In this document: positions 3,798-20,300 of the stretch, in pieces
How positions within the stretch are numbered: the stretch's first letter is position 1
How the letters are laid out: each line of letters opens with the position of its first letter
NCBI GenBank assembly: GCA_903879915.1
Contig: CAIRNJ010000102.1
Location: 13,200-77,199, forward strand
From: an uncultured Elusimicrobia bacterium
GTDB lineage: Bacteria > Elusimicrobiota > Elusimicrobia > Elusimicrobiales > UBA9959
DNA: 64,000 bases
Direction: 5' to 3'
Notes under the pieces: model-generated
What the model saw: the letters and a program-made list of their open reading frames with translations, nothing else
Databases searched by the model: none
Told to the model about the DNA's origin: nothing
Made by a program: the position numbers and the translations under genes

Positions 3798-3812
3798 AAA
3801 GTTCCGGCAGCG

Positions 3813-5063: not shown

Positions 5064-6356
5064 GTGAAAAAAACCGCTCTGCCCCCCGCTTTGCTGTTCA
5101 GCCTGGCTTTTTGCGCCGTGCCCGCGCGCGCGCAGCTTGAAGCGCTCACCGCCGCCGGCCTGCCGGCCGTAGCGGTCCCCGCCGCCGCCGAGCCCGGCCG
5201 CGCGGCCCAGGCCGAGTGGACGGTGCTCATTTACGTAAGCGCCCGCAATAACCTGGGCCTGGAAGCCATCAAGGACGTCAACGAAATGGAAGCCGCCGGC
5301 TCCACCGCTAAAGTTAACGTGGTGGCGGAGCTGGGGCGCATCAAGTGCGATCCCCCTTTCAACCCTTTTTCCAGCACGCAGGAACCGGTGCCGCCGCAGG
5401 CGGACTGGACCGGCTCGCGCCGCTTCCTGCTGGTGAAGGATACCGACCCGCTGAAGATAAATTCCCCGGTGCTGGCCCAGTATCCGGACGCCGACATGGG
5501 CGACTGGCGGCACCTGGCCGAATTCATAGCCTGGGGCAAGGCGGCTTACCCGGCGAAAAAATATATGCTGATAGTGGGCGGCCACGGCAGCGGCTGGCGC
5601 GGCGTAAAGCCCCCTCCCGGCGCGCCCAAGGGCATCGCCTACGATGACGTTTCAGGCAGCCATATCTCCCCCGCCGAGCTGGCGGAGGCTATAAAGGCCG
5701 GCGGCGGCGTGAACGTGTACGCCTCGGACGCCTGCCTGATGCAGACCATAGAAGTGATCTACGACCTGAAGGATTCCGCCGAGTATATCGTTGGCTCGCA
5801 GGAGGCCACGCCAGGCAGCGGCTATAACTACGAGGTTTTCCTGAACGCGCTGGCGGCGGCCCCCGGCGACGCCTTCGCCGCGGCGCAGCACGTAATGGCC
5901 GGTTTCTCCGGCTATTACGGCGGCCTTAAACAGTCGGTGACCATGTCCATAGTGCGCCCAGCTTACGCGGCTGAAATGGCCGGGAAAATGGACAGGTTCG
6001 CCCGGCTGGTGGCCGCTTCCCCCGCGGATATGAAGCTGTACCACGACAGGAAGTTCGGCCTGCGCTCCTACGACGACGAGGACGCCCGCGACCTGTACCA
6101 GCTGATGAAACTGTACTACGACAGCAGCCCCACGCCCGCCGTGAAAGAGGCGGCGCGGGACGTGATAGTGTTCCTGTCGGAAAAGCTGGTGGCGCGCAAC
6201 GACGCGGTGGGCTACAAATCCAAGGACTCCAACGGGCTTTCGGTCTACTTCCCCATCTTCTACATGAACTACAAGCCGAAGTACGAATACCTCTCCTTCT
6301 CCCGGGCCACCTACTGGGACGAAATGGTGAAAGCCGTAGTAGAATCAAAGAAATAA
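5064..6356 (+). CDS. Secreted clostripain-family (MEROPS C11) cysteine peptidase
   Basis: GTG start followed by a signal peptide (VKKTALPPALLFSLAFCAVPARA). C11-type motifs WTVLIYVSARNNL, catalytic-His context IVGGHGSGW and catalytic-Cys context YASDACLM. The upstream 3201-5063 part of the track ORF is an antisense shadow of murD/mraY. Confidence 0.75.
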   Translation: MKKTALPPALLFSLAFCAVPARAQLEALTAAGLPAVAVPAAAEPGRAAQAEWTVLIYVSARNNLGLEAIKDVNEMEAAGSTAKVNVVAELGRIKCDPPFNPFSSTQEPVPPQADWTGSRRFLLVKDTDPLKINSPVLAQYPDADMGDWRHLAEFIAWGKAAYPAKKYMLIVGGHGSGWRGVKPPPGAPKGIAYDDVSGSHISPAELAEAIKAGGGVNVYASDACLMQTIEVIYDLKDSAEYIVGSQEATPGSGYNYEVFLNALAAAPGDAFAAAQHVMAGFSGYYGGLKQSVTMSIVRPAYAAEMAGKMDRFARLVAASPADMKLYHDRKFGLRSYDDEDARDLYQLMKLYYDSSPTPAVKEAARDVIVFLSEKLVARNDAVGYKSKDSNGLSVYFPIFYMNYKPKYEYLSFSRATYWDEMVKAVVESKK

Positions 6357-6367
6357 AACTGCAGCCG

Positions 6368-8083
6368 CTATTCCTTCGCTCCTGAAGAGGGCGGGAAAAA
6401 GAACGCTGAAACGCTGCCCAGCTGCGGCTCGGTCTTCGCGCCGTCGGAATAGATGTAATAAGGGGCGCTGGTGTAGCCGTCCAGGTTGCGCAGCTTCACC
6501 AGCGCGGCGCGCTGCTCCTCGGTGAGCGTTCTGTTCACTTTGGCGAAGGCCATAGTGTAGTACCAGGAAACCTCTCCGTCCAGCTCGCCGTACCGGCGGC
6601 CCAGCGCTAGGACCTTTTCTTTGTCGGGCGCCTGGCCCGCCAGGTACTTGCGCAGCTCAACCGATATTTCCTGCCGCACTTTTATTATTTCCGCCATGGC
6701 CTTGCGCTGGAGGGGCAGCACCGCGTCCACGTGCCGGCGCTGCGCGGGCGTAAGCACCTCGCTGAGGAAGGCCTTGCCGCTGTCGCCGGTCACCGAGGTG
6801 CTGATGTCGAAGCTCTTCTTGCCCATGGCGGGCATGTCCTTCATGTAGAACCCGCCGAAGTAGGTGCCGTGCCGCTCGGGGCAGAAATACGTATCGGCCT
6901 TGACCGAGCCGGCGGTCCAGCTGAAGAACTCGCTCAGATAGGTCATGTAGGCCACGTTGAACATCTTGGGCTTGCCGCGGCCCGCCTCTTTGGCCTCGGT
7001 CTCGTCCAGCTCAGGCCAGGTGGCGAAATCGCCGAACTTCATTTTGGCGAAATAGGCCTTCTGTTCCGCGCTCAGCGACAGCCAGACCTTGGCCATTACC
7101 TCGGCGCGGCGGCGGCTGAGCTCGGCGTCCACTTCAAAGATCCTGCCGACGCTCCGCATTACCGCGGCCTTATTAAGGCCGGTGCTGCCCGAAGGCAGCT
7201 GCTCGTCCTTCTGCATGTGGAAAGCTTTTATGACCGGCAGGCGCAGTTTGGCCAGTGCTACCAGCTGCGGCTGCTGTTCCTCGGCCAGGTCTATGAACAG
7301 CTGCTTCTGTTCGGCCGTTAGGTTATGCGCCACGTTGCCGGCCACCCGGCTGAGGAAGATCGGGTTATGCCCTTTCTTGGCGGCGTCGATGTCGCGCATG
7401 TACTGGAAGCCGAAGAAATCGCACACCTTGCCCGGCGGGATGAACGTGGCCGCGCCGAAATCCCCGGTAAGGAAAGCCAGGCCGTTGAAGGCGATGGTGG
7501 TAAGCTGCGCGTTGTCCGAGACGGCCTGCTCGAGGTTATACCGGCTGCCGCCCTCCTTGCCGCCGCCTTTTCTTCCGGCGCCTCCGGGCCCCCCCTTGCC
7601 CTGGCTGCCCCGCATTCCTCTTTCGCCGTCTTCCGCGCCGGGCCTGTCCGGGGGCGGGTCCATCTGTTTAAGCATCTCGGGATCGAACCCGACGGAGATC
7701 AAAAGTTCGTCTTCAACTGGACCACCCTGCACGCCTATATCCCGCAGGGCCTTGTGTATGGCCTTGGCGTCTTCGGCCGACAAGGCCGAGGCGTCGTACT
7801 TCGAAACTATTTCCGCGGCGCCGGCTTTTTGTTCTTCGGTGATGGTCTGTGAGCCGCCGCGCTCCTGCCTGCTGTTCGCGTTCCTGGACGGCCTTTGCCC
7901 GGATCTCTGCCCGGTCCGCTGTCCCGGCCTCGGTCTCTGGTCCTGCCCTCGCGCCTGCCCCCGTTCCTGCCCCTGGTCCTGCTCCTGCCCCGCTCCCCTG
8001 CCTTCGTCGTCCTGGTCCTGAGCCCGGGCCAGCGGCCCGCCCAGAACCAGCATATAGATGGCCGCCGTTATTAAAAATTTCAT
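6368..8083 (-). CDS. Secreted protein: signal peptide, Gln/Arg/Gly/Asp-rich disordered region, short helical segment, then the uncharacterised X domain with LTXXQ-like motifs (paralogous to the centre of the 1253-aa protein)
   Basis: Start moved to ATG 8083 (MKFLITAAIYMLVLGGPLARAQ signal peptide, GGAGAA RBS 6 nt upstream). The C-terminal ~370 aa align by eye with aa 605-1023 of ORF 8851..12612. Shared blocks: YN[IL]..., FPPGKV.D[YF].GFQ[FY][LM]RD, GHNP.F, LPSG.TGL, FSW..G.V.AD.YFCPER.GTY.GGFY.KD.PAM. Confidence 0.7.
   Translation of the reverse strand: MKFLITAAIYMLVLGGPLARAQDQDDEGRGAGQEQDQGQERGQARGQDQRPRPGQRTGQRSGQRPSRNANSRQERGGSQTITEEQKAGAAEIVSKYDASALSAEDAKAIHKALRDIGVQGGPVEDELLISVGFDPEMLKQMDPPPDRPGAEDGERGMRGSQGKGGPGGAGRKGGGKEGGSRYNLEQAVSDNAQLTTIAFNGLAFLTGDFGAATFIPPGKVCDFFGFQYMRDIDAAKKGHNPIFLSRVAGNVAHNLTAEQKQLFIDLAEEQQPQLVALAKLRLPVIKAFHMQKDEQLPSGSTGLNKAAVMRSVGRIFEVDAELSRRRAEVMAKVWLSLSAEQKAYFAKMKFGDFATWPELDETEAKEAGRGKPKMFNVAYMTYLSEFFSWTAGSVKADTYFCPERHGTYFGGFYMKDMPAMGKKSFDISTSVTGDSGKAFLSEVLTPAQRRHVDAVLPLQRKAMAEIIKVRQEISVELRKYLAGQAPDKEKVLALGRRYGELDGEVSWYYTMAFAKVNRTLTEEQRAALVKLRNLDGYTSAPYYIYSDGAKTEPQLGSVSAFFFPPSSGAKE
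7853..8023 (-). repeat. Low-complexity coding repeat (QDQ/GQR/GQE-rich, about 57 aa)
   Basis: Encodes AQDQDDEGRGAGQEQDQGQERGQARGQDQRPRPGQRTGQRSGQRPSRNANSRQERGG. The DNA shows a cryptic cctg/ctgc periodicity. Confidence 0.6.
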
Positions 8084-8129
8084 AAAGTTCTCCGTTTCCG
8101 CTGCGCCGGGTCTGTCCGCTCTTAACCAC

Positions 8130-8157
8130 TTAAACCTCAGATAGCGTAAAAAGTTCC
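8130..8157 (-). promoter_or_regulatory. ECF-type promoter candidate, site B (upstream of the X-domain gene)
   Basis: The minus strand reads cGGAAC-TTTTTACGCTATCTGAG-GTTTAAg (N17 spacer). Intergenic, between the PEBP stop (8168) and ATG 8083. Same architecture as sites A, C and D. Confidence 0.45.
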
Positions 8158-8167
8158 GCAAGCTCCG

Positions 8168-8788
8168 TTACTGTCCTTCCCCCGGCGGCGGAGGCGGCGG
8201 CCCGTCCGCGCCGTCACTGCCCGGCTCCGTGAACCGCTCATAGATCACGCTGAATTCGGCTGAGCCGAGTATCAGCCCTTTCATGGCCGAGAGCAAAGTT
8301 TCCCGGTTTACTTTCTCCGGCTTAACAGTTATCCTCGGCGCAGCCGACAGCGCGTAGACGGTGTAGATATATTTCTTCGGCCCCGGGCCTTTCGAGTGCG
8401 GCGGCGCGTAGCCCGCCCGCCCGTTCACGCTGTTAGTTCCCAGTATCCCTACGCCTTTTACGTTCTTAGGCAGTTTCCTGGTTTTTGCAGGAATATCGTA
8501 AATTATCCAGTACCATTTGGTCTTGTCCGGCGCGATATGGTGCATGATCAGCGCGAAGCTCTTAGCTGCTTTCGGCGCGCCGCTCCATTCCAGCGGCAGC
8601 GTGGCGCTGGCCCCGTCGCCGGTATATTCCACGGGCAATTGGCCGCCGTCCTCTACGGCGGGGCTCCTGAGCACAAAACCGGCCGCGGAGCTTTTTTTCT
8701 CCGCGCCTTGCTCCGGCTGCGCCGGGGCGCCGCCCGGAAAGGACAGCGCCAGCAGCCCGCCCAGCGCTAAAATAATAAACCGTTCCAT
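8168..8788 (-). CDS. Secreted PEBP/YbhB-YbcL-like protein with a Pro-rich C-terminal tail
   Basis: Start moved to ATG 8788 (MERFIILALGGLLALS signal peptide, GGGAGG RBS). PEBP-like core: LPLEWSGAPKAAKSFALIMHH...KWYWIIYDIP...GYAPPHSKGPGPKKYIYTVYALS. Ends in GPPPPPPGEGQ. Confidence 0.7.
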   Translation of the reverse strand: MERFIILALGGLLALSFPGGAPAQPEQGAEKKSSAAGFVLRSPAVEDGGQLPVEYTGDGASATLPLEWSGAPKAAKSFALIMHHIAPDKTKWYWIIYDIPAKTRKLPKNVKGVGILGTNSVNGRAGYAPPHSKGPGPKKYIYTVYALSAAPRITVKPEKVNRETLLSAMKGLILGSAEFSVIYERFTEPGSDGADGPPPPPPGEGQ

Positions 8789-8802
8789 ATTTCCTCCCGA
8801 TA

Positions 8803-8830
8803 TTAAACAGCTTTGCCCGCAAAAAGTCCA
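8803..8830 (-). promoter_or_regulatory. ECF-type promoter candidate, site D (upstream of the stand-alone PEBP gene)
   Basis: The minus strand reads tTGGAC-TTTTTGCGGGCAAAGCT-GTTTAAt (N17). The -35 is imperfect (TGGAC). It lies only about 15 nt from the ATG, so the leader would be very short. Confidence 0.3.
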
Positions 8831-8850
8831 ACTGCCCGCCGCCCACTTTC

Positions 8851-11800
8851 TCACGGCGCTGTATAGGTCAGCGTCATTGTCGCGGAACTGATAGTGATCC
8901 CCGAAAGCGCGGCCGTAAGAACTGAACCTGTCACCGGTGATGAAAGCGACGGCGCTGCGGACAGGGCGTAGAGCTTATACGTATAAAGCCTGTTGCCGCC
9001 GCCGCAGGGCGGGTTGTAGGCCGTTCCCAGCGGCCCGTCGCTGGTCCCCAGGGTCCCGCCGCCCGTAGTATTCTTGGCGAAGCCTGAACTGCTGCCTGGT
9101 ATGCCGTAGAGTACCCAGTTATACTTGGTCTCTAACTGCGGCGTAACTTCAGACATAGTCAGTGCGAACTGCTGCGTTCCCGAGGGCGCATTGGTCCAGG
9201 ACATGGCGGGAGATGAACTGGAACCGGAACAGGAATATTCCAGCGTCATGGCCCCGCCGCCCGTACCCGCGCCGCTCGTCAGGGTAAAGAGCGCCTGTGT
9301 GACGCTCACCATATGGCTTGCGGAGCCCGAGCCGGCGGAGTTCGAGGCCGTAAGCGTTACGGTATAGGTGCCTGAGGAGGCGTAAACGTGCGCCGGGTTC
9401 TGTGCTGAGCTGGTTGCCCCGTCCCCGAAATCCCAGGCCCACGAGGCAGGGGCGCCGCCGGAGGCGTCCGTGAACGAGACCGTACCGCCGGCGGCAGGAG
9501 AGGAAGGAGAGAAGGAGAACGCCGCCGAGGGCGCGTCGGTGGCGAACAGGTAGTCGGTATCGTCGATATACGGCGTTATCCTGGCCAGCACGGCGGGGTC
9601 GGTGGTGGTGTCCGAGTAAAGGTAAGTGGATCTGCAGACAGAATAGTCGTAAGGGGTCCCGTTGCTATAAGTGCTGATAAGCAGACCGTCCCAGAAATCC
9701 GTCTTCAGATGGGCCCTCTGGGCGGCGCTCAGCGAGTCGGCTACCTGCTTGAAAGTTGTGGCGTAGTAGTAATTGTTAATGCCGTCCAGCGTGCCGTAGG
9801 TGGCCGAGGACAGCGCCAGCACCTGCGCCCTGACGGCGGCGCTGGAAGCGGTAGAGACCAGCAGGGTGCGCAGCAGCGCCGCTATCTGCGCGCGCACTGC
9901 CACTATGCCCTCCATATTGCTCCGCTGCACCTCGATGAGGTTCGTCATGATGGCGGCCTGCGTGGACGCCACGTAGCCCAGGGAACTGTCGAGCAGGGCC
10001 GCCCCGGCGTTGCCGGTCAGCGCGGAGTCTATGGTGTAGCTGACGCCCTGTGGCGCGTTCATGGCCGGCGCGTCCTTGATATAGAACCCGCCGTAATAGG
10101 TGCCCTGGCGTTCTGGGCAGAAATAGACGTCGGCCTCGACGTTGCCGGAATACCAGCTGAAGAGGTCGCCGGCGTAGGTCATTACCAGGGTGTTCATCGT
10201 GGTATTTGAAGCGTTGGCGCCCAGCGCGGTCTCTACCCTTGTCTTCATGTAATTGGCGTCGGTCACGGTCCAGGAGGAAGCGCCCACCCCTTTCATGGCG
10301 TCCAGCTCGGCCAGCTGGGCGCGCGTCATGGAATTATAGACGTTGGCGTAAGCCAGGGCCCGGTCGAAGGCTATCTGGCCGTCCATGAGGTAGAGTTCCT
10401 GCGACACGGCCGTTACCGCGCTCAGGCTGAGGCCGGTGGCGCCGGAAGGGATGTTCCCGTCCATCAAACGCCGGAAAGCTTGTATCAGCCTGAAGCGGTG
10501 ATAAGCGTACTCGTTGACCTGGTCCGCCTGGCTCACTGCCAGGGCCGCCAGCTGCGCCAGCTGGGAGTCGCTGAGTATCCGGATGACGCTGTTGGAGGTC
10601 AGGCCCGTGAAATCCGGGTTGTGCCCCATATTGCTGGGGTCGCTGTCCCGGAGGAACTGGAACCCGGTGTAGTCGGCCACTTTGCCCGGCGGGAAGTACG
10701 ACTGCGAGCCCAGGTTGGCGTTCATCAGGCCGAGGGCGTCGAAGGCCAGCGTGGTGCCCTGGGCCTGGTCGGAGATGCCCTGCGAAATATTATAGGCCGG
10801 CACGGTGACGGTTATAGAGCGGGTCAGCGTGGCCGAGCTGATGGAATTGGCGACCCTGAGCGTGACGGTGTAGCTGCCTGCCGAGCTGTAAACGTGCGTC
10901 GGGTACTGGGCGGTGCTGGTGGACGTGTTGTCGCCGAAATCCCAGGCCCAGGAAACAGGGGCGTTCTGCGAGGCGTCGGTAAAGCTTACCGTGTTATAGG
11001 TGGTAGGGCTGCTCGGGTAGAAGCTGAACGCGGGCGAGACGTTCGCCCGGGCGTAGGTCAGGTTCAGCGCCGCCGAGCTGATGATAAGTGAGGAGATGGC
11101 GCTGGTAAGCACGTCGCCGGTCACCAGGTCCGCTGCCGGCAGGGACGGCGCGCCCGACAGCGCGTATAAAGTGTAGGTATAGACCTTTGGCCCGGGGCCC
11201 TGCGAGCAGGGGGCGGCGTACTCCTGGCTTTGCGTGTCGCTGTTCACGCCCGCGGTGCCCACGCCGGAAGTGTTCTTGTCCAGGCCGGAGGCCGCCGCCG
11301 GTATGGCGTACAGCACCCAGTTCCATTTTGTGCTCCCGTCGCCCGGCAGCGTGGTCATGAGCAGCGCGAACTGCTGCGTGCCCGCCGGCGCGCCCGACCA
11401 GGCCAGGGCCGGGGAGGCGTACGCGCCGTCGCAGGTGTACTCGGCGGCCATGGCCGCCCCCTCCGCGCCTACGGGGCTGGTCAGCGCGAAGGCGCCCGCC
11501 GCCGCCACGGTTACGGTATGGCTGACCGCGCTGGAGCCCGCCGTATTCGCGGCCGTGAGGCTCACCGTGTAGCTGCCGGAGGAACTGAAAACGTGGGTCG
11601 GGGATTGCAGGGTGCTGCTTGAGCCGTCGCCGAAATTCCAGGCCCAGGAAGCGGGCGTGTAGGCAGAGGTGTCCGTAAAAGTCACCGTCTGGCCGGCGGT
11701 GGGCGAGGCGGGCGAAAAACTGAAGGCGGCTACGGGCGCCGACGATACCGCTGCCTGCGTATAGGTCAGCGTCATGGCGGCCGAACTTATGATCAGGCCC

Positions 11801-12612
11801 GAGAGCGCGGCCGTAAGAACGCCGCCCGTCACCTGCGCGGGGTCGGACGAAAGCGACGGGGCTCCGGACAGGGCGTAGAGCGTGTACGTATAAAGCCTGT
11901 TGCCGCCGCCGCAGGGCGGGTTGTAGGCTGTTCCCGCCGCGCCGTCGCTTTTGCCCGCCGTGCCGCCGCCGGTGGTGTTCTTGACGAAGCCGGAGCTGCC
12001 CGCCGGTATGCTGTATAGGACCCAGTTATATTTCGTCTCCAGCTGCGGAGTTAGTTCGGAAATGGTCAGCGCGAACTGCTGCGTGCCGGACGGCGCGCTG
12101 GTCCAGGCCATCGCCGGCGAAGACCCGGCTCCGGAGCAGGAATATTCCAGCGCCATAGCCCCGCCGCTCGTGCCCGCGCCGCTCTCCAGGGTGAAAGTCC
12201 CCTGGCTGACAACGGTCACTGTATGGCTTACGCTCCCGGCCCCCGCGGAGTTGGAGGCCGTAAGGGTTACACTATAACTGCCGGACGAGGCGTAGACGTG
12301 TGTCGGGTTCTGTGCCGCGCTGGTTGCGCCGTCGCCGAAGTTCCAGTCCCAGGAAGAGGGGCTGTTGACGGAGGCGTCGGTAAAGGTTACGGCCTGGCCG
12401 GCGGCCGGTGAAGCAGGAGAATAAGTGAAGGCCGCGGCCGGCGCGGCGGCCAGCGCGGCGGCCGCGGCCGCCCGCTTGTGTTCCGTCACCTTTTCGTCCA
12501 TCGTAGTCACCGCATGTTTTACCGCGCGGGTCATGCCCATATTGATCCCGGCGGACAGCGCGGCGGTCAGCGGGAACAGCGCGGCGAACAGCAGGCAATA
12601 AAGTTGTTTCAT
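8851..12612 (-). CDS. 1253-aa secreted modular protein: SP-[PKD-PEBP]-[PKD-PEBP]-PKD-X domain-[PKD-PEBP]
   Basis: Signal peptide MKQLYCLLFAALFPLTAALSA. Four PKD-type repeats (F.[FY].P..P..G..V.FTD.S...P.SW.W.FGDG..S....P.H.Y...G.Y.V.L...N). Three PEBP-like modules (P.[ML][AS]W...P.GTQQFAL...KYNWVLY.IP...Y.PPC...Y.Y.LYALS). Central ~420 aa are paralogous to ORF 6368..8083. The ATG lies 1 nt after the stop of the upstream barrel gene. Confidence 0.8.
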   Translation of the reverse strand: MKQLYCLLFAALFPLTAALSAGINMGMTRAVKHAVTTMDEKVTEHKRAAAAAALAAAPAAAFTYSPASPAAGQAVTFTDASVNSPSSWDWNFGDGATSAAQNPTHVYASSGSYSVTLTASNSAGAGSVSHTVTVVSQGTFTLESGAGTSGGAMALEYSCSGAGSSPAMAWTSAPSGTQQFALTISELTPQLETKYNWVLYSIPAGSSGFVKNTTGGGTAGKSDGAAGTAYNPPCGGGNRLYTYTLYALSGAPSLSSDPAQVTGGVLTAALSGLIISSAAMTLTYTQAAVSSAPVAAFSFSPASPTAGQTVTFTDTSAYTPASWAWNFGDGSSSTLQSPTHVFSSSGSYTVSLTAANTAGSSAVSHTVTVAAAGAFALTSPVGAEGAAMAAEYTCDGAYASPALAWSGAPAGTQQFALLMTTLPGDGSTKWNWVLYAIPAAASGLDKNTSGVGTAGVNSDTQSQEYAAPCSQGPGPKVYTYTLYALSGAPSLPAADLVTGDVLTSAISSLIISSAALNLTYARANVSPAFSFYPSSPTTYNTVSFTDASQNAPVSWAWDFGDNTSTSTAQYPTHVYSSAGSYTVTLRVANSISSATLTRSITVTVPAYNISQGISDQAQGTTLAFDALGLMNANLGSQSYFPPGKVADYTGFQFLRDSDPSNMGHNPDFTGLTSNSVIRILSDSQLAQLAALAVSQADQVNEYAYHRFRLIQAFRRLMDGNIPSGATGLSLSAVTAVSQELYLMDGQIAFDRALAYANVYNSMTRAQLAELDAMKGVGASSWTVTDANYMKTRVETALGANASNTTMNTLVMTYAGDLFSWYSGNVEADVYFCPERQGTYYGGFYIKDAPAMNAPQGVSYTIDSALTGNAGAALLDSSLGYVASTQAAIMTNLIEVQRSNMEGIVAVRAQIAALLRTLLVSTASSAAVRAQVLALSSATYGTLDGINNYYYATTFKQVADSLSAAQRAHLKTDFWDGLLISTYSNGTPYDYSVCRSTYLYSDTTTDPAVLARITPYIDDTDYLFATDAPSAAFSFSPSSPAAGGTVSFTDASGGAPASWAWDFGDGATSSAQNPAHVYASSGTYTVTLTASNSAGSGSASHMVSVTQALFTLTSGAGTGGGAMTLEYSCSGSSSSPAMSWTNAPSGTQQFALTMSEVTPQLETKYNWVLYGIPGSSSGFAKNTTGGGTLGTSDGPLGTAYNPPCGGGNRLYTYKLYALSAAPSLSSPVTGSVLTAALSGITISSATMTLTYTAP
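8854..9534 (-). repeat. C-terminal PKD-PEBP module (aa about 1027-1253)
   Basis: By eye its protein sequence is about four-fifths identical to the N-terminal module (11755-12432). The DNA differs at many third-codon positions. Confidence 0.7.
9544..10800 (-). other. X domain within the giant protein (aa about 605-1023), uncharacterised, with four LTXXQ-like motifs
   Basis: Motifs LSDSQLAQLAAL, MTRAQLAELDAM, VASTQAAIMTNL and LSAAQRAHLKTD occupy positions equivalent to LTAEQKQLFIDL, LSAEQKAYFAKM, LTPAQRRHVDAV and LTEEQRAALVKL of ORF 6368..8083. Confidence 0.6.
11047..11730 (-). repeat. Second PKD-PEBP module (aa about 295-522)
   Basis: Its PEBP part (STKWNWVLYAIPA...APCSQGPGPKVYTYTLYALS) is the module closest to the stand-alone PEBP gene (KTKWYWIIYDIPA...GPGPKKYIYTVYALS). 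Confidence 0.65.
11755..12432 (-). repeat. First PKD-PEBP module (aa about 61-286)
   Basis: Near-duplicate (at protein level) of the C-terminal module at 8854-9534. Confidence 0.7.
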
Positions 12613-12613
12613 A

Positions 12614-13207
12614 TCAGTACAGGAACAGCAGTGTCTGCGTGTCGCTCTTTTTGGAATTAGAGCGCTTCTTCTGCTGTTTCCCCCTTTTCCCGGCGGTACG
12701 GGCCGCGCCGGCTTTGCCGCCGCCCCAGTAGAAATTAAGCCCGAAATTAGCCACGTATTCGATAGCCCCGGCCGATACGGGCTCGTTTTTGTCCCGCAGG
12801 TAAATATAGGCCGGTCCGAAATCGGCCTGCAGCGAGGCGTCCGGAGCTAGGAAGCATTCGAAGCCTGCGAACAATTCCCCCGCGGCCCCGGCCCCGCGGC
12901 TGACTTCTCCCTTGAACTGTATGTAATCCGCTTCCGCGCCCAGGAACAGGTACATCGCCGCCGACGGGCGGTAATAGCTGTACAGGCGCAGGCCGCCCAC
13001 CGTAACGCCGCCGTCTGCCTGCCCTTTGGCTTCCAGCGCGTAGCGGTCGCTCATGAAATACCTGATACTTAGCCCCGGGTAATTGAAGCCCAGCCCGAAG
13101 GTGCCCCTGCCGGCACCCTGGCCGGCGCATGCCGCGCGGCAGCCCAAAAGCAGAATGCTGAAGCAGAAGCAGACGACCGCTGCGGTATTCCGGAAAGGCT
13201 TGAGCAT
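12614..13207 (-). CDS. Small outer-membrane beta-barrel protein (8-strand type) with a Lys/Arg-rich C-terminal tail
   Basis: Preferred start is ATG 13207 (MLKPFRNTAAVVCFCFSILLLGC...). Alternating aromatic/Gly beta-strand pattern (FGLGFNYPGLSIRYF, LRLYSYY, YLFLGAEADYIQF, ELFAGFECF, IEYVANFGLNFYW). Then the tail GGGKAGAARTAGKRGKQQKKRSNSKKSDTQTLLFLY. The start codon choice (13207, 13219 or 13231) is uncertain. Confidence 0.55.
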   Translation of the reverse strand: MLKPFRNTAAVVCFCFSILLLGCRAACAGQGAGRGTFGLGFNYPGLSIRYFMSDRYALEAKGQADGGVTVGGLRLYSYYRPSAAMYLFLGAEADYIQFKGEVSRGAGAAGELFAGFECFLAPDASLQADFGPAYIYLRDKNEPVSAGAIEYVANFGLNFYWGGGKAGAARTAGKRGKQQKKRSNSKKSDTQTLLFLY

Positions 13208-13241
13208 ATGCGTATCCATACACAGGTACACATCCGCTTAT

Positions 13242-13269
13242 TTAAACAGCGAAACCGGAAAAAAGTTCC
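13242..13269 (-). promoter_or_regulatory. ECF-type promoter candidate, site A (upstream of the barrel + giant protein genes)
   Basis: The minus strand reads cGGAAC-TTTTTTCCGGTTTCGCT-GTTTAAa (N17), immediately after the terminator hairpin and about 35 nt upstream of ATG 13207. Confidence 0.45.
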
Positions 13270-13294
13270 GCCCTGAAAACGGATGTTTTCAGGG
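13259..13294 (-). terminator. Rho-independent terminator after the sigma/anti-sigma/LTXXQ operon
   Basis: Perfect 10-bp stem CCCTGAAAAC/GTTTTCAGGG (13271-13280 / 13285-13294) with a 4-nt loop. On the minus strand it is followed by CGGAACTTTTTT. It starts 42 nt after the stop at 13336. Confidence 0.65.
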
Positions 13295-13335
13295 CGTGTA
13301 TGGGGAGCGCGCAAGCCTGGGCGCGGCGCGAGGTT

Positions 13336-13743
13336 TTAGCGCGGTGCTCGCCTGTCCGGGTCTTCTCCGTCGCGGGGCGGCGGCGGCCTGTTTTCGCGGC
13401 GTTTGGAATCGTTGTCCAGTTCTTCCAGCCTGGCGTACTGCTCCGGCGTAAGGACGATCCTCAATTCCGACTTGATCCTCCGGCGCAGTTCTTCTAATCT
13501 GGGCTGTATGGAATCCTTCGTCTTTTTTACTTCTGGCCGGTATTTATTGAAAATGGCCGAAACCTGCTCCTGCTGGGGGCCGGAGAGGCCGAGCTCGCGG
13601 GTGAATTTTTCTATCGCGCCTTCGGCGGGGACCGGCTGCGGCGGCCTGCGTTTAAGATGCATATGATAATAATCGGAGAACAGGGCGCCCATCAGGACGC
13701 CCGCGGCCACGGCTGCGGCTATCTGGTTCCAGCGTATGTTCAT
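13336..13743 (-). CDS. Periplasmic LTXXQ-motif protein (Spy/CpxP/ZraP-like, the 'periplasmic heavy metal sensor' family)
   Basis: Start moved to ATG 13743, which overlaps the anti-sigma stop (ATGA). N-terminal TM/signal anchor IAAAVAAGVLMGALF, then LSGPQQEQVSAIF and LTPEQYARLEEL motifs. Basic/Pro-rich tail. Confidence 0.7.
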   Translation of the reverse strand: MNIRWNQIAAAVAAGVLMGALFSDYYHMHLKRRPPQPVPAEGAIEKFTRELGLSGPQQEQVSAIFNKYRPEVKKTKDSIQPRLEELRRRIKSELRIVLTPEQYARLEELDNDSKRRENRPPPPRDGEDPDRRAPR

Positions 13744-14228
13744 TTGTCCGCTCCTTCCAGCATGGTCAAAAGGTTCCCCCCGCCGGCCGCAGGGCCTTCG
13801 GAGAAGATATTGGAAAGGGGTGAGCCTGAACTCCGGGCGGCCGGAACGGAGAACTGGCGCGCCGGCATAAGGCCGGTCTCGACGCACAGAACGTAGACGG
13901 CAAAGGAGGCCAGGGTCATGGCCGGCACTTTCCACCAGCCCGCCAGCGCCGCGCGCGTATCCGGTGAAAGCGCGAACGGGTTGAAACCGGAAGCCTGTTC
14001 TTCCGCCTGCCCGGCCCGGAGCTTCGCCATCAGGGCATCCACGAATTTATCGCCCAGCGCTGGAGCCTCGTACAGCTCCAGAGCCTGCCAAGCTTTGGAG
14101 AGCAGTTCAGCTTCTTTGCGGCAGGAGGCGCATTCTTCAAGGTGGCCGCTAAGTTCCGCCTTTTCGGAGTCATTCAGGCTGCCGGAAAGGCCGCCGGCTG
14201 AAATTTCCATGGCTCTTTTACAGTTCAT
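13740..14228 (-). CDS. Anti-sigma factor, zf-HC2 type, single-pass membrane protein
   Basis: H-x3-C-x2-C motif (HLEECASC) near the N-terminus and one predicted TM segment (VPAMTLASFAVYVLCV). Immediately downstream of the ECF sigma gene. Confidence 0.75.
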   Translation of the reverse strand: MNCKRAMEISAGGLSGSLNDSEKAELSGHLEECASCRKEAELLSKAWQALELYEAPALGDKFVDALMAKLRAGQAEEQASGFNPFALSPDTRAALAGWWKVPAMTLASFAVYVLCVETGLMPARQFSVPAARSSGSPLSNIFSEGPAAGGGNLLTMLEGADK

Positions 14229-14248
14229 AAACTATCCCCTCTCATAGG

Positions 14249-14276
14249 TATAACCGCCGATCATTGAAAAAGTTCC
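14249..14276 (-). promoter_or_regulatory. ECF-type promoter candidate, site C (inside the 3' end of the sigma gene, upstream of the anti-sigma gene)
   Basis: The minus strand reads cGGAAC-TTTTTCAATGATCGGCG-GTTATAc (N17). The GGAAC overlaps the last sigma codons (..AELFQ*). The -10-like element differs (GTTATA), so it could be coincidental. Confidence 0.3.
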
Positions 14277-14848
14277 GCCAGTTTTTCTTTCAGGCCGAGT
14301 TTCGCCCTGTGAAGAATGGATTTTACCGCCTTGGCCGAGCAGCCCATGACCTCCGCGATAGCTTCGTAGGAGAGTTCGTCGTAGCGGCAGAGCAGCACGG
14401 CAGTTCTTTGGTTCTCAGGCAATGAAGCCAGGGCTTTTTTTACCGCCTCGGCCTGTTCTTTTCTGATCAGCAGCTCCGCGGGCGGCAGATCTTTCGGGTC
14501 AGCCAGCTGCAGGCCGGGCGCGTCTTCCTGCGCTTCAGGCTTTTCGTCCAGAGGGACGAAAAGGCCCCTATGCCCGCGTTTAGCCAGAAAATTCAGACAG
14601 GTGTTGCGCGTAATGGTGAACAGCCAGGTGGTGAACTTCGCTTTTACCGTGTATTTGTTCCGGGCGTTGTAAACTTTAATAAAAACTTCCTGCGCGGCGT
14701 CCTCGGCGTCGGCGGCGTTGCCCAGGAACCTGTAAGCGAAGGCGAAAACCCGCTGCTTATGGGTTTTGACCAGCTCTATGAAGCAGGACTCCTCCCCGGC
14801 GATAAAGCGGAGCATCAACCGCGCGTCCTGGTCGGGATCCTCTGTCAT
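14261..14848 (-). CDS. ECF (group 4) RNA polymerase sigma-70 factor
   Basis: 195 aa. Region 2 (AEDAAQEVFIKVY...FTTWLFTITRNTCLNF) and region 4 (LPENQRTAVLLCRYDELSYEAIAEVMGCSAKAVKSILHRAK). The ATG overlaps the stop of the upstream PD40/TPR gene (ATGA). Confidence 0.9.
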   Translation of the reverse strand: MTEDPDQDARLMLRFIAGEESCFIELVKTHKQRVFAFAYRFLGNAADAEDAAQEVFIKVYNARNKYTVKAKFTTWLFTITRNTCLNFLAKRGHRGLFVPLDEKPEAQEDAPGLQLADPKDLPPAELLIRKEQAEAVKKALASLPENQRTAVLLCRYDELSYEAIAEVMGCSAKAVKSILHRAKLGLKEKLAELFQ

Positions 14849-17322
14849 TTATCTATGGACCGTGTTTCCTGCGCGGCCAGCGCGCTCTTCAGGTGACGGG
14901 CCGCGCTGTCCAGGTCGGGGTCGATGCTTAACGCTTTCCTGTAGGAAGCCAGCGCTTCGTCCCGGCGGCCCAGCTTTTCCAGCACCGCGCCCAGGAGGTC
15001 GTACGTACCCGCGTATTTCGGCTCCAGCCTTATCACTTCTCGGTAATGGGTTTCGGCCTCGCCGAACTCGCCGCGCGCCGCGAGCAGGGCCGCTAAAATG
15101 TCGTGAATGGCCACGTTGTTGCGGTCCAGCCGCGCCGCTTCCCTGTATTGCTTCACGGCCTCGGCCGGAGTACCCTGCGCTTCAAGGGCGGCGCCCAGCT
15201 CGGCGTGCAGCAGCGCGGTGTCGGGGCTCAGCTTCAGCGCCGCCAGGTATTTCTCTATGGCTTCAGCGAGCATTGCTTTTCTTTCCGCCCCGGAATATTC
15301 CGCCGGGCCCGGCGGCACATAGTCGTAGCGGGCTTTCAGCGCCGCGTGGTAATTGGTCCTGTCATCAGGCAGCAGGCTCTGCATGCCCAGGGCGCCGGCC
15401 AGATAATAGAACACGATAGCCGAATCCGGCCGCGCATTTATTGAGTCCCTGTAATGGCCGATCGCGCCTTTCAGGTCGCCGCGCTTAGCCAGGAGCAGGC
15501 CCATATTGGCGTGCGCGTGGGGATCGTTGGGGGCTAATTTAAGCGCCTCGTTCAAATGAGAGAAAGCCTCCTCGCGGCTGCCGGTCTTCTCCAGCGCAAC
15601 GCCCAGCAGGATCTGCACTTCGGTGTTCCCTGGGTCGAGCTCCAGCGCTTTGCGGTACGAAGCTATGGCTCCGCCGCTGTCGTTGGCCCTGGCGAACTCG
15701 AGGCCCGCCCGGTGGAAGGAAAGGCTGTCCAGGAACCTTTCGCGTATCTTTTTAAGTATGCCGCCTTTAGCCGGGAGGAATTCCGGGATGTTGGCCGCCC
15801 TGTCGGGCGCGGTAAAGCCGTCCAGCAGGACAGGGGGCGTATCGTTGCCCTGCGCGTCGATATGGGTAAGAAAAAGCTGTGTATAGGGCGTGTTGGCCTT
15901 GGAGGCGAAGACCAGCCAGCGGCTGTTGGGCGACCAGCTGTGCCAGGAGTTCATCGTGGGTTGGTTGCAGCGCATTTTCCTGGCTTCGCCCCCGCCGGCG
16001 GGCATGATATAGAGCTCGCTGTCGGGCTGCAGCAGCATGAAACTTTTCGCTTTGCAGAATATTATCCATTTCCCGTCGGGCGAATATTTCGGGAAGAAAT
16101 TGCTCATGCCGTTATCGGAAGCGCCCTGCAGCGGTTCCGGCTTGCCGCCGCGGCCTTCGTTGAAAGCAACGCGGTAAAGGTCGAACAGGAATTTCTGGCC
16201 GCCTTCCAGGAATTCCGCGCATTCTTCCTTCGCCAGCAGCACCTTGTCCCTATCGCGCAGATTTTTCAGCTTATGCGCCAGGTTCCTGGCGAAAACGATA
16301 TACTTGCCGTCGGGGCTCCAGGCGGGGTTGCTCTGTACGAATTCGGGGTCGTCAGCGCCCGGCAGCGCCTGGAAGGTCTTAGCCGCGCGGGAATAGACGG
16401 CCAGGATGCCGCTGACCGGAAAAAAAAGCTGCGAGAAGGCCAGCCCCGGCGTGGCCACGAACACCGAGCGGTCCTTGACCGTGCTGACCGCGTACCGCCC
16501 GTCCGGGGAAACCTGCGAAAGCAGGCCGAAGGTCTGGACGCCTTCCGTCCTTTTATAATCGTGCCAAGTGATGATCTTGCTTTTGTCGAGGATGGTCTCT
16601 TCGAGCACCCGGGCGATGGCGTAGGAGCCTTTGTCGTTGGCGTAATCCACGTCCATGCCCAGCACCGAGCCGTCGGCGGAAAAGGAATGGCAGTTGCCGC
16701 AGACCGGCAGATTCTCCAGCACTACCGGGGGCTGCGTTCTCAGGGAGACCTTCCCCAGCCGCCAGCGGATGCGCGAGGGGTCCTTTACCGCCTCGCTGAA
16801 CGGCAGGTTCACTTCCCTGTAGAACAGCGGCGCCTCTACTTTGTCTTTGGAGGTGCTGAAGGAAATGCTGCCCGCAGACAGGATATTTCCGGGCGCGCCG
16901 CGGGCGGCGCCGGCCACGGTAAGCCTGGCGGTCCGCTCCAGCGACCGGCGTTTGATAAGCTCCCAGTCGTCGTTGCCGGGAGTCCACTCCGGGGCCGCGG
17001 AAATAAAGCTCAGGCGGCCGCCGGCCGCGCCGGAGAATTCTATAGTCACCAGCCACAGGTCCGCGGCGGCGTTGTTGTCTTTCCAGCGGAACCCGGGGGC
17101 CGCTATGTCCGCCGGGAAAAGCGTGCCGTCGAAAGGTTTCTCGAAGGTTATGCCGCCGTCAGCCGCTCCGCTCCTGTAAGCCGCCAGCAGGGCGGCCAGG
17201 GCGGGGTCGGGCCTGGCCGGCGCGGCCGAGATAGTGCGCAGCAGCCCGGCGCCCAGTACGGCCAGCAGCAGCAGCGCGGCGCGGCGGTGCTGCTGTACTA
17301 TGAAGAGCGTGATGGTTCTCAT
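14845..17322 (-). CDS. Secreted protein: N-terminal domain with a single CXXCH motif, TolB-like PD40 beta-propeller repeats, C-terminal TPR repeats
   Basis: Signal peptide. VCGNCHS at aa 207-213. PD40-type repeats (VSPDGRYAVSTV, WSPDGKYIVFAR, YSPDGKWIIFCK, WSPNSRWLVFAS). At least five TPR-like units in the last ~270 aa (for example AIASYRKALELDPGN, AIGHYRDSINARPD, ALASYRKALSIDPD). Confidence 0.75.
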   Translation of the reverse strand: MRTITLFIVQQHRRAALLLLAVLGAGLLRTISAAPARPDPALAALLAAYRSGAADGGITFEKPFDGTLFPADIAAPGFRWKDNNAAADLWLVTIEFSGAAGGRLSFISAAPEWTPGNDDWELIKRRSLERTARLTVAGAARGAPGNILSAGSISFSTSKDKVEAPLFYREVNLPFSEAVKDPSRIRWRLGKVSLRTQPPVVLENLPVCGNCHSFSADGSVLGMDVDYANDKGSYAIARVLEETILDKSKIITWHDYKRTEGVQTFGLLSQVSPDGRYAVSTVKDRSVFVATPGLAFSQLFFPVSGILAVYSRAAKTFQALPGADDPEFVQSNPAWSPDGKYIVFARNLAHKLKNLRDRDKVLLAKEECAEFLEGGQKFLFDLYRVAFNEGRGGKPEPLQGASDNGMSNFFPKYSPDGKWIIFCKAKSFMLLQPDSELYIMPAGGGEARKMRCNQPTMNSWHSWSPNSRWLVFASKANTPYTQLFLTHIDAQGNDTPPVLLDGFTAPDRAANIPEFLPAKGGILKKIRERFLDSLSFHRAGLEFARANDSGGAIASYRKALELDPGNTEVQILLGVALEKTGSREEAFSHLNEALKLAPNDPHAHANMGLLLAKRGDLKGAIGHYRDSINARPDSAIVFYYLAGALGMQSLLPDDRTNYHAALKARYDYVPPGPAEYSGAERKAMLAEAIEKYLAALKLSPDTALLHAELGAALEAQGTPAEAVKQYREAARLDRNNVAIHDILAALLAARGEFGEAETHYREVIRLEPKYAGTYDLLGAVLEKLGRRDEALASYRKALSIDPDLDSAARHLKSALAAQETRSIDK

Positions 17323-17337
17323 GGCGGCTGGTTTCCT

Positions 17338-20300
17338 TTACGGCCAGAAATCCCGCGGATAGAGGCGCACCACTTCGGCGGCTTCCCCTTTTTCGCGGAC
17401 GAAACTCTCGTAGCTCCGGATCAGGCTGTCCGGTCCTGTTAAAAAAGCGCCGGCCTGCGGCGAGTCCGAGACCCTGCCGCCGGGCAGCCCCGGCAGCACC
17501 CGGCCGAGCGCCTTCAGGAAGCGCGCGCGCACCAGCGTCAGCGTGCCGGGCCTCCGGGCGAGCTCGAGCAGCGCGTATTTATAGGCGTGCACGGCCTCCG
17601 GGCGGTTGCCCTCTTCCAGGTCGTAGGCCAGGGCGGCGCCGCGCGACGAGAAACTCCCCGCGGCGCGGTAGTCGGCGAAGGAAGTGGCCAGGCTGTATTC
17701 GAGCTGGGAAGTATCTTCTATCTTCGTCTCCGCCGCTACCCCGGCCGCGAAGCGGAGCGTCTGCGCGGGGTCGGGGCATTTGTCGGCGTAATACCTGGCC
17801 TGACCTATCGAAGCGTAAAGCCCCAGCCCGTTGCTGTAAGCCAGCCCGGCGCCCCAGGTGCGCATGAAAAGCGAGTGCGCGCCGCCGCCCGCCAGGATCC
17901 CCAGGGCCAGGGCGTCGGGCAGGTCGCCGGGCTGAAAGGAATTATAGCCCGCTGCCGGCGTCCAGACGCTGATCGTGCCGGTCTTGCCGCCGTTGTTGAC
18001 CAGCGCTACGTGCGCCGGCCGGCCTATGCCGGGCAGGCGCTGGCGCAGCCGGCCTACTACCAGGTCCTTGCGCGGCGGCGCCGCCGCCTGCCTGCCCCTG
18101 GGCAGGCGGTCCAGCAGCGTTTCCAGCTGCCGGGCCGCCCGGTCGCTGTTCGCGGCGTTGCCGTTGATATGCACCCGCGTACCGGTGCGCACCAGCACGC
18201 CCGCCGCCAGCGCCTGCAGCCGGCGGATGGTCTCGGCGGGATGCCCGACGTCGGCGAGGAAATCGGAGGCCAGCGTCCGAAGGTCGGCGCGCCAGGAATC
18301 ATCGGGCAGGTGCGCGAATTCCCAGCGCAGATATTCGCCGAACTCGCCGTCCACCCCGGCCAGGAGTTTTTCCGCCGCGGCCCTGTCCGAGGTTTTCGCG
18401 GCGGCCATTACTTCGGCCGCGGCGGCGCGCAGGGCGGCCAGCCGCTCCGGCGCCGGGTCCTCCAGGCGCCAGCGCAGGCGGTTGAGGCTGCGCAGCACGG
18501 TGAAGGGGCTGGAGATGTTCATGTACAGCGGCCTGTCCTGGTATCTGTAGGCGGCTACCGCCTCGGACACCCAGGATTCCTCGTCCTGCTGGAAGATGCC
18601 GCGCCAGCCCTGAATGCCGGCCCGGAGCGTGTCTATCAGCCGCTCCCGGGCCGCCGGCGTCAGGCCGGGGCGGAGCAGATAGTTCTCTATCCAGGCTACG
18701 GCCCGGTCGACTTCTTCCGGCGAGGAAGCGGTAGCGCTGAAGCTGAGCTCGGCGCGGTCGCTGCGCGGGTAGGCCGCTACGCCTACGCCGGCGTCGTAGA
18801 TCTCGGCCATGATGCGCTCGCGGGCCGCGGCGTAGTCCAGCCGCTCGCCCGCCCGGGTGACCACGCCCACGGAGCCGAGGGCGCCGCCCAGCAGGGGCAG
18901 CAGCTCCCGGTCCCCTTCCGGCACGCCGCGCAGGTCGAAGTTCACGCTGATATCCGTGAAAGGCGTCTGGAACTGCGTTCGCACCAGCCGCGCTCCTGAA
19001 GCCATAAGACTTTCGCTCCAGGCAAGCTGGTCCAGTTCCAGCGGGGGCTCGCGCAGAAAAGACGGCTCGGGCGCGCCGCGCTCAAGCGCTTCGAGCTCGG
19101 CCGTGGCAGACGCGGTCTCGGCGCGGTAGCGCTCCAAGGCTTTCGCCTCAGGCAGACCGTATGCAACTGTCAGACGCTGCGAAACCGCTTTGAGGCGTTG
19201 CTGCTTCAGACCCTTCTCATGCTCGAGGAGGGCGGGATCAGGAAGGACCGCGGATACATATGGTTGTTCCAGCATGCCTGCGCGCTCGAGCGCTGCCGCC
19301 CAGGGATTCTTCCCCTCACCGAGCTCCGCGAGCAGGCGGTCTAGGGCCGCGTCTTCGGACAGCGATTTATCGAAACCCGGATCGGCGGAAAGTCCGTCCA
19401 GAAACCTGTGCCAGCTTTCGCCGGTGGAGCGTTCGCCGAACATAGGAGGCCCTTCCATCGCCTTAAGCCGGGAGCGCCGGTACGAGAGCATGCGTGAGCG
19501 CGCCCGGTCCGCTACCTCGGCCAGTTCAGGGCTGCCGGGTTTGAGATCGTGCAACCAGCGTACGCGCTCGTTTACTATGTCTCGCAGCCGCCCCAGTTTG
19601 GCCGGTGTAACATTGGCCGGCGGTATGCCGGAAAGCCACAGCATGGCATAAGAAGCGGGCAGGGCCTCGGCATCAGCGCCGATGTTGGTAGCGCCGGAAT
19701 CAAGTTTTCTGGTTTTCTGGTCTATCAGGTCGCGGTACAAGTAGGAAGTTTCACCTCCGCCTAGGAGGTCAATAGCCAGGTCAATGCGGGGCTTTTCGTC
19801 AGTGCTGAACGTCTTTCCAGGCGGCCAGGCCAGCAGCGCGTCCTGCGGCACCGGCGTACCATCGGAAGGGAAACTGCCTATCCGGACCTCGCGGCTCTTC
19901 AATGGCTCAAAAGGCGGCAACCCGGAGTAGGAGCCTGCAGGCGGTTGCGGCTCCAGGCGCAGGATCTCGTCGTTGAGTCGCGCCAGGAAGTCGGCGGCGT
20001 CCCAGCCCTGCGGCAGAGCCGCTATCATCTCCATGTTCCCGTCCAGATGGTAATGGGTGGCGTGAAAAGCGCGTACATCGGCCGGCGAAAGTTCCCATAT
20101 CTTTTCCGGTCTTCCCCCCTGAACGCGCGCCAGTGGGTGCTTTGGGCCGTACAGCATCTCGGTGAGCTGATACCAGCGTATCCAGGCCGGCTGTTCCGCA
20201 CTCGCCACCATTTCGGTATATACTGTTCCCTTTTCCTCCAGCTTAAGCAGTCCGCCTTCCTCCACCACGGCGGTATGCGCTATCTCACGGCGCATTTCCT

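Follow-up and report, generated by a model that had tools for sequence, protein, structure and literature searches.

In the genome of an uncultured Elusimicrobia bacterium (GenBank assembly GCA_903879915.1), a gene for an extracytoplasmic function (ECF) sigma factor is followed on the same strand by a cluster of genes for secreted proteins, among which a short two-part motif recurs four times. The question raised by this locus is whether the four sites (A to D) are promoters and, if so, whether the adjacent sigma factor reads them. The DNA that was analyzed is a 64,000-nucleotide stretch of contig CAIRNJ010000102.1 (positions 13,200 to 77,199; hereafter the window). An earlier note had proposed ECF-type promoters that form a candidate regulon of the adjacent sigma factor, a proposal that is supported by the geometry of the sites, their co-orientation with the genes that follow, the islands of conservation that they form in related genomes, and the restriction of the motif to one clade of sigma factors. 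As judged from sequence comparison, the four sites very probably serve as promoters for RNA polymerase that carries the product of the sigma gene at 14261-14848. What was observed directly is the motif with its statistics and conservation, together with the finding that it co-occurs with the sigma clade. All four sites were found where the earlier note had placed them, in the minus-strand reading of the window:

13242-13269, minus strand: site A, GGAAC (13269-13265), a 17-nt spacer and GTTTAA (13247-13242); predicted promoter of the barrel gene and the giant PKD/PEBP/X gene

8130-8157, minus strand: site B, GGAAC (8157-8153), a 17-nt spacer and GTTTAA (8135-8130); predicted promoter of the X-domain gene

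14249-14276, minus strand: site C, GGAAC (14276-14272), a 17-nt spacer and GTTATA (14254-14249); predicted promoter of the anti-sigma and Spy-like genes

8803-8830, minus strand: site D, TGGAC (8830-8826), a 17-nt spacer and GTTTAA (8808-8803); predicted internal promoter of the PEBP gene

In each of the four, a TTTTT run follows the 5-mer immediately and the spacer up to the hexamer is exactly 17 nt, so that the shared T-tract and exact spacer described in the earlier note are both present. Every site lies on the same strand as its downstream gene, and its -10 element ends 14-51 nt before the start codon (the sites standing beside operon genes). The consensus of 27 sites in 14 loci is gC-GgAAC-TTTTT-N12-GTT-taA, with a spacing of 17 nt in every one. 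The features by which ECF-type promoters are recognized, namely an AAC-containing -35 element, a GT(C/T) or CGT -10 element, and a fixed spacing of about 16-18 nt, were all found.

The motif is far more frequent at this locus than composition predicts. GGAAC-N17-GTTTAA has 2 matches in the window, where 0.01 are expected. When GGAACTTTTT-N12-GTTTAA is searched with up to two mismatches, the 4 matches are exactly sites A-D (0.01 expected), and four matches were reached in none of 100 shuffles. A position weight matrix (PWM) trained solely on sites from related loci ranks A (42.3 bits), B (39.2 bits), C (36.5 bits), and D (24.0 bits) first to fourth in the window, with the next independent site at 12.2 bits; the per-64-kb maximum in 100 Markov-1 simulations had a mean of 12.4 bits and a top value of 22.5 bits. 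The claim that no equivalent motif occurs elsewhere in the window also holds, 12.2 bits being the best other PWM score. Two look-alikes had been cited as lacking a -10 element. The one near 3800 (3778-3807) indeed has no GTT and scores 8.0 bits, and around the one at 47225, which was covered by the PWM scan rather than inspected by coordinate, no score exceeds 12.2 bits. Other copies of GGAACTTTT, at 2222 and 48879, have no GTT 17 nt past GGAAC, and a search for GGAAC and GTT at other spacings, or 17 nt apart at other places in the window, brought up few, unrelated matches that lack the T-tract and TAA. The spacer scans also brought up a perfect 6-bp inverted repeat, GGAACG-N14-CGTTCC, at 45171-45198, which is unrelated to the ECF motif and could be the binding site of a regulator.

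The putative reader of the sites and its putative antagonist are encoded by adjacent genes:

14261-14848, minus strand: ECF (group 4) sigma factor gene, 195 aa, with Pfam matches to Sigma70_r2 (PF04542, 1.3e-21) and Sigma70_r4_2 (PF08281, 1.1e-17)

13740-14228, minus strand: putative anti-sigma factor gene, 162 aa, with an N-terminal HxxxCxxC (zf-HC2-like) motif and one predicted transmembrane segment

The sigma factor has the size and the domain content of the ECF family (sigma2 and sigma4 domains only; 195 aa in a family of about 170-220 aa), and it scores 115 bits against TIGR02937 (sigma70-ECF; cut-off 42.9). Among proteins of solved structure it is nearest to AlgU, SigW, and E. coli sigmaE, at about 30% identity. 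It is not an RpoE ortholog by the equivalog test (TIGR02939, 119.4 bits vs. a cut-off of 236.15), and its Pfam and NCBIfam matches are to generic ECF models, with no named ECF group among them. The ECF reclassification paper mentions no Elusimicrobia, LTXXQ, or DUF3106, and the paper on the ECF specificity code offers no usable residue-to-base rule. No RseA or RseB domain was found by Pfam. The anti-sigma factor is instead zf-HC2-like: its translation shows GHLEECASC (HxxxCxxC) and a hydrophobic segment, and it falls just under the cut-off of PF13490 (zf-HC2; 21.0 bits vs. 22.2). It also matches NF052375 ('anti-sigma factor') with an E-value of 1.6e-9 (38 bits, cut-off 100) and TIGR03988 (RsrA) with 18.2 bits (cut-off 62.5).

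A search of genome and metagenome collections with the sigma protein returned 160 loci, and a look-up of X-domain homologs added two syntenic ones, L161 and L162. The closest genome match to the sigma factor is an Elusimicrobia metagenome-assembled genome (MAG; locus L001, 71% identity); sigma identity to the window is 78% in L161, 76% in L082, 73% in L081, and 52% in L083. The most complete counterpart is L161, where four sites stand in the same order (C' GGAAC..GTTACA, A' GAAAC..GTTTAA, D' TGGAC..GTTTAA, and B' GGAAC..GTTTAA). L081 carries C', A', and B', L001 carries C' and two tandem copies of A', and L162 carries D' and B', while L082 and L083 each have C' and a second site past the third gene. 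Site A is conserved before the barrel ortholog in L001, L081, and L161, site B before the X ortholog in L081, L161, and L162, and site C at the sigma/anti-sigma junction in L001, L081, L082, L083, L087, and L161. In alignments of the four intergenic regions, cGGAACTTT(T)T and GTT..A alone are invariant, the spacers and flanks having diverged. The -10 element of site C in the close clade is GTTATA, GTTACA, or GTTGTA, always off consensus.

These comparisons settle, in favor of the sites, two caveats that had been attached to the motif. Site C had been said to lie in coding sequence. It is intergenic and conserved in all relatives, and only in the window does the sigma reading frame cross its -35 element (encoding ...AELFQ*) and its spacer contain the sigma stop codon (14263-14261), which indicates that the DNA motif is conserved independently of coding. 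Site D had been described as having an imperfect -35 element and a short leader; its -10 element ends 14 nt ahead of the PEBP start codon, and both TGGAC and a distance of 14-15 nt to ATG recur in L161 and L162. Site D is probably a weaker promoter than the others. As a separate observation, in L001 (1967-2116), where two tandem consensus sites precede the barrel ortholog, the first site is followed by a hairpin of 12 bp whose loop is C-rich (CCCCUGCCCCUACCCCCC) and whose U-tail is weak. This hairpin (fold energy -30.7 kcal/mol, z = -2.0) has no counterpart in the window, and the element could be an ECF-dependent small RNA.

When each locus in turn was left out of the matrix, every known site in L161, L081, and L082 scored more than 10 bits above all else. 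Both A' copies stand clear in L001, where C' scores 16.5 bits, 9.7 above the next match; in L083, an extra minus-strand match (20.1 bits) lies near the two known sites (25.3 and 22.8 bits). The PWM scan found no further high-scoring site in about 106 kb (the window, L081, and L161), and within the ~106 kb seen for the lineage the regulon appears to be confined to the cluster. In 1.8 Mb of distant ECF loci, matches of at least 21.7 bits occur at sigma/anti-sigma junctions only.

The motif also follows the sigma clade across wider distances. nnAAC-TTT-N14-GTT adjoins the sigma gene in 12 of the 12 loci whose sigma identity is at least 42%, lying between sigma and anti-sigma in 10 and upstream of sigma in 2 (L088 and L089). 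Within the 42-49% group the junction site has an AAAAC or GAAAC -35 element in L084, L085, and L086, as it does in L002 (Omnitrophota). Clostridia homologs of 32-38% identity have GGAACTTTTT-N12-CGTCTAA at the same junction (L004, L005, L011, L014, L023, L029, L035, L041, and L092), and Desulfatiglans-type homologs (L012, L016, L090, L093, and L102) have GGAACnTTTT..TGTCAAA upstream of sigma. Among the loci compared, the motif was seen only in those of this sigma clade. The letters vary with the sigma lineage and the geometry stays fixed, which is the pattern that cognate sigma-promoter pairs predict. Covariation between sigma region 4.2 and the -35 element was too weak to use: at one helix position H or N tends to go with GGAAC and S with AAAAC/GAAAC, an association broken by L085. 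Upstream of the X-domain homologs of three loci from other phyla (L163, an unclassified-bacterium MAG; L164, Planctomycetaceae; and L165, a Verrucomicrobiaceae-named homolog), a search with a regular expression too loose to be informative did not find the motif, and a GGAACTTTTT-type site is absent there.

Scans for sigma-70-type promoters and terminators between 6 and 21.2 kb gave counts at the level of shuffled sequence, and only the hairpin at site A stands out:

13269-13296, minus strand: terminator-like 12-bp hairpin, CGCCCTGAAAAC-ATCC-GTTTTCAGGGCG, the top-ranked terminator-like site in the terminator scan

The T tail of this hairpin is the T-run of site A, an overlap of terminator and promoter that is found in this genome only, as the hairpins of the relatives are separate from the site. 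A reading of the sites as an RNA element was dropped, there being neither an Rfam family nor a tRNA in the window.

Several explanations other than promoters of the local sigma factor have to be weighed against these results. A coincidence of AT-rich intergenic DNA in a GC-rich genome could draw on the fact that the intergenic DNA is AT-richer than the window average used in the shuffles, and on the departure of both C and D from consensus. Chance is nevertheless effectively refuted by the absence of any shuffle with four matches, by a matrix built from other genomes that picks A-D first, by the confinement of high-scoring matches in distant ECF DNA to sigma/anti-sigma junctions, and by conservation of the sites across 14 loci. 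The repeat could also be something other than a promoter, such as an operator, the 3' tail of an intrinsic terminator, or a small dispersed repeat. Site A comes right after the 12-bp hairpin, where its T-run could be a terminator tail, all sites lie just past a stop codon, and sites A and B of L161 weakly match on the opposite strand too (the latter because AAAC and GTTT are partly self-complementary). Yet B, C, and D have no upstream hairpin, and two short blocks at a fixed 17 nt around a free spacer fit -35 and -10 elements rather than a palindromic operator or an RNA structure. In addition, the orientation always agrees with the downstream gene, the window has no Rfam match, and the copies are confined to the cluster instead of being dispersed, all of which makes a non-promoter element very improbable.

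A closer competitor holds that the sites are genuine ECF promoters but are read mainly, or also, by another ECF sigma factor, with the adjacency being partly coincidental or the regulons overlapping. The GGAAC/GTT motif is shared widely among ECF sigma factors, and all SigE promoters of C. glutamicum are also read by SigH (PMC10012870); moreover, the local sigma gene lacks the motif itself, and only 64 kb of the genome is visible. Against this, the motif adjoins this sigma clade in every close relative despite differing neighbor genes, the -35 and -10 letters shift with lineage (AAAAC/GAAAC in L084-L086 and L002, CGTC in Clostridia), and the sigma/anti-sigma junction is the expected place of a cognate feedback promoter. 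Reading by another sigma factor is thus unlikely, although it is the least improbable of the alternatives. The assignment to the local sigma factor must also accommodate some observations that weigh against it. Site D, at 24.0 bits, is only modestly above the null maximum of 22.5 bits (and drops to 17.5 bits under an earlier matrix made without D-type sites), it leaves a leader of only ~7-8 nt with the Shine-Dalgarno sequence at its extreme 5' end, and it is absent from L081, where an Lcl_C gene sits before PEBP. Site A overlaps the terminator-like hairpin, and its T-run could in part belong to a terminator. For the sigma gene itself no sigma-dependent promoter was found, with nothing above background upstream of 14848, through the TPR and M16-like genes, to 21 kb. 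Lastly, the view of the genome extends over 64 kb, which leaves room for ECF sigma factors of overlapping specificity and for further members of the regulon.

With the local sigma factor as the preferred reader, a circuit can be proposed for the cluster. In the direction of transcription (minus strand), its order is M16-like, TPR/PD40, sigma, site C, anti-sigma, small protein, hairpin, site A, barrel, giant, site D, PEBP, site B, X. The genes beside sigma and anti-sigma are:

20781-17338, minus strand: M16-like peptidase gene

17322-14845, minus strand: TPR/PD40 protein gene

13336-13743, minus strand: gene for a small exported helical protein, 135 aa, weakly LTXXQ/Metal_resist-like; overlaps the anti-sigma stop

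12614-13207, minus strand: gene for a small exported 'barrel' protein, 197 aa; translationally coupled to the next gene

8851-12612, minus strand: gene for a giant secreted protein, 1253 aa, PKD-PEBP-PKD-PEBP-PKD-X-PKD-PEBP (Pfam PKD x4, PBP x3)

8168-8788, minus strand: gene for a secreted PEBP (YbhB/YbcL-type), 206 aa (PF01161, 1.7e-20; TIGR00481, 3.9e-14)

6368-8083, minus strand: X-domain protein gene, 571 aa, with a signal peptide, a low-complexity linker, a ~390-aa conserved helical domain and a C-terminal LTXXQ match

In the resting state, the membrane anti-sigma factor (14228-13740) would keep the sigma factor inactive. An envelope signal would then inactivate the anti-sigma factor, and the released sigma factor would bind the -35 element (c)GGAAC-TTTTT and the -10 element GTTTAA 17 nt apart, with transcription starting a few bases downstream. 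This sigma factor as the reader, the location of the transcription start sites, the relative strengths of the promoters, and the signal are what we infer from the observations above. Promoter A would transcribe the barrel gene and the giant PKD/PEBP/X gene, and promoters D and B, both internal, would supply additional transcripts of the small PEBP gene and of the X-domain gene, respectively. The terminator scan found no terminator-like site between the giant, PEBP, and X genes, so that D and B are probably internal boosters on top of read-through from A. Promoter C, at the extreme end of the sigma gene, would transcribe the anti-sigma gene together with that of the small Spy-like periplasmic protein, closing a negative-feedback loop; the hairpin at 13296-13269 probably ends this transcript, while its T-tail doubles as the T-tract of promoter A.

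A cognate promoter upstream of the sigma gene is the usual form of ECF autoregulation. No such site was found upstream of sigma in L001, L081, L082, or L161 either, and together with site C this points to negative feedback through C, not classic autoregulation. The sigma ATG overlaps the stop codon of the upstream TPR/PD40 gene (ATGA). Lacking a cognate promoter and being translationally coupled to the TPR gene, the sigma gene is probably co-transcribed with the M16-like and TPR genes upstream of it and its product made constitutively. Upstream of sigma, an invariant 14-mer, GTAGTTTGTAGAAT, is found in L001 (289-302), L081 (9978-9991), and L082 (2328-2341), the three relatives in which sigma has its own intergenic region; it resembles an extended -10 element (TGnTAGAAT). 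Neither the window nor L161, in which sigma overlaps an upstream gene as well, contains the 14-mer.

The nature of the signal is at most hinted at by the LTXXQ-like modules in the third gene and in the X protein, which would suit envelope, metal, or folding stress. Departures from the consensus depend on position and are conserved across genomes, with a weakened -10 element at C (in the close clade) and a weakened -35 element at D (TGGAC). They raise the tentative idea, for which the odds are somewhat unfavorable, that the four promoters are not equivalent and that a hard-wired expression programme is in place: an ECF switch with negative feedback only and no positive autoregulation of sigma, by which barrel, giant, PEBP, and X proteins would be made in fixed ratios.

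Residues 607-1035 of the giant protein are 34% identical to the X-domain protein (E 5e-64), and the three PEBP copies that it contains share 34-48% identity with the small PEBP, so that the predicted regulon would consist of the barrel protein and of proteins built from three secreted modules. The 197-aa protein is possibly an outer-membrane beta-barrel, a label taken from its sequence pattern alone. It has no Pfam or NCBIfam match; its orthologs in L001, L081, and L161 are 50-60% identical, with a conserved terminal aromatic residue. The small exported helical protein matches PF13801 (2.6e-4) and PF07813 (9.4e-4; 20.3 bits vs. 24.3), both under the cut-offs, and in L082 and L083 its orthologous position is held by DUF3106 proteins.

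The X-domain gene is monocistronic, as the next gene is a convergent C11 peptidase. Its product matches PF07813 (LTXXQ; 1.4e-8, 35.7 bits) over residues 444-531 only, and outside these residues it has no Pfam relative; the sources nonetheless name the X-domain 'Spy/CpxP chaperone', although only its last ~90 residues match LTXXQ. The family is secreted, very large, and unusually conserved: over 3000 homologs, at 55-88% identity, come from phyla that include Verrucomicrobia, Planctomycetes, and Hydrogenedentota, and PEBP-X fusions are common among them. Cys221, His239, Cys401, Glu403, and Arg404 are invariant in the alignment. An AlphaFold2 (AF2) model of the X-domain protein is all-helical (pLDDT 73). 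No relative in the PDB was found by sequence profile search, and a Foldseek search of the AF2 model against the PDB gave none with an E-value <0.09. In other phyla, X-domain genes stand beside sulfatase, metallophosphatase, Lcl_C, EF-hand, and YHYH genes, under other regulators. For instance, in L165 (8001-14423) and L164 (2021-12024) they cluster with genes for PEBP, Lcl_C, sulfatase, a purple-acid-phosphatase-like metallophosphatase, EF-hand, and YHYH proteins, and the L164 cluster lies downstream of a different ECF sigma factor. This recurring neighborhood may hint at the function of the PEBP/X system.

Within the window, the cluster is part of an insert of ~19 kb (~4900-24200) that splits a cell-wall/division cluster. 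The insert contains the C11 peptidase gene, the whole ECF cluster, and TPR, M16-like, histidine kinase, and SBP_bac_5 genes; it is flanked by a Mur ligase gene (25577-24201), with more minus-strand open reading frames upstream of that gene, on one side and by mraY (4898-3813), murD, ftsW, and murG on the other. At 20800-24000 the GC content of the insert is down to 0.46-0.51, compared with about 0.62 elsewhere. This segment, which may have been horizontally acquired, encodes an SBP_bac_5 protein and a histidine kinase whose C-terminus is receiver-like. At the other end, most of a long plus-strand open reading frame (3201-6356) is spurious, as it overlaps mraY and murD on the opposite strand. 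The real gene is its last ~370 codons (about 5230-6356), which encode a Peptidase_C11 (clostripain) and are convergent with the X-domain gene.

The predicted promoters are of a canonical type and the proposed circuit is an ordinary ECF stress-response switch; the general understanding of ECF sigma factors is unchanged. For an uncultured Elusimicrobia-like lineage, the locus yields a confident promoter model that is open to testing, and a predicted regulon of compact size, with four promoters under one ECF sigma factor; the literature searched contained no ECF work on Elusimicrobia, nor an ECF sigma factor with DUF3106. In this ECF clade the predicted diagnostic promoter sits at the sigma/anti-sigma junction, where it would escape pipelines that search the upstream side of sigma only. 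The proposed circuit also ties two very widespread, highly conserved, uncharacterized secreted domains, PEBP and the helical X-domain, to a stress response of the envelope type, which suggests conditions under which to look for their function. If the fixed-ratio programme were true, it would provide the first regulatory handle on the X-domain family. The interest therefore lies mainly in the feedback-only wiring, the position-specific and conserved promoter variants, and the uncharacterized PEBP/X-domain output.

Among known systems, E. coli sigmaE recognizes a -35 element of GGAACTTTT and a -10 element of (T/C)GGTCAAAA, i.e., GGAAC-N17-GTCAAA, and a second sigmaE promoter lies upstream of rseA (PMC1312014). 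The sites described here share this -35 element and the GGAAC-N17 register, followed by GTTTAA instead of GTCAAA. Both systems pair an ECF sigma factor that is envelope-related (here by prediction) with a membrane anti-sigma factor (here a putative one), and the rseA feedback promoter parallels the predicted promoter at site C. They differ in the -10 core (GTT here, GTC in sigmaE), in the anti-sigma factor (zf-HC2-type, not RseA, and with no RseB), in the lack of a promoter upstream of sigma, and in their targets, which are PEBP, PKD, and X-domain proteins here and assembly factors for outer-membrane proteins and lipopolysaccharide in E. coli.

The actinobacterial SigE/SigH/SigR promoters have the form GGAAC/T-N17-19-(c)GTT (PMC10012870). 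In C. glutamicum, where SigE and SigH use GGAAC-N17-18-cGTT, the promoter P2cseE precedes the anti-sigma gene and autoregulation of sigE is rare (PMC10012870). The Elusimicrobia-like system resembles SigE/SigH (SigR) in the core GGAAC ... GTT and in the HxxxCxxC motif of its putative anti-sigma factor, and it resembles sigE-cseE in having a predicted stress promoter right before the anti-sigma gene while sigma would be transcribed from other promoters. It differs from these actinobacterial systems in phylum, in the T-tract after the -35 element, in the TAA after GTT, and in the content of the regulon; and its anti-sigma factor is predicted to be membrane-anchored, in contrast to the soluble RsrA and RshA. 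The predicted sites of the Clostridia and Desulfatiglans-type homologs share GGAAC-TTTT and the 17-nt spacer, and in Clostridia also the junction position. Their -10 elements are CGTCTAA (Clostridia) or TGTCAAA (Desulfatiglans-type), whereas GTTTAA is used here. The Desulfatiglans-type site lies upstream of sigma, as in classic autoregulation, while the site in the Elusimicrobia-like lineage lies at the sigma/anti-sigma junction.

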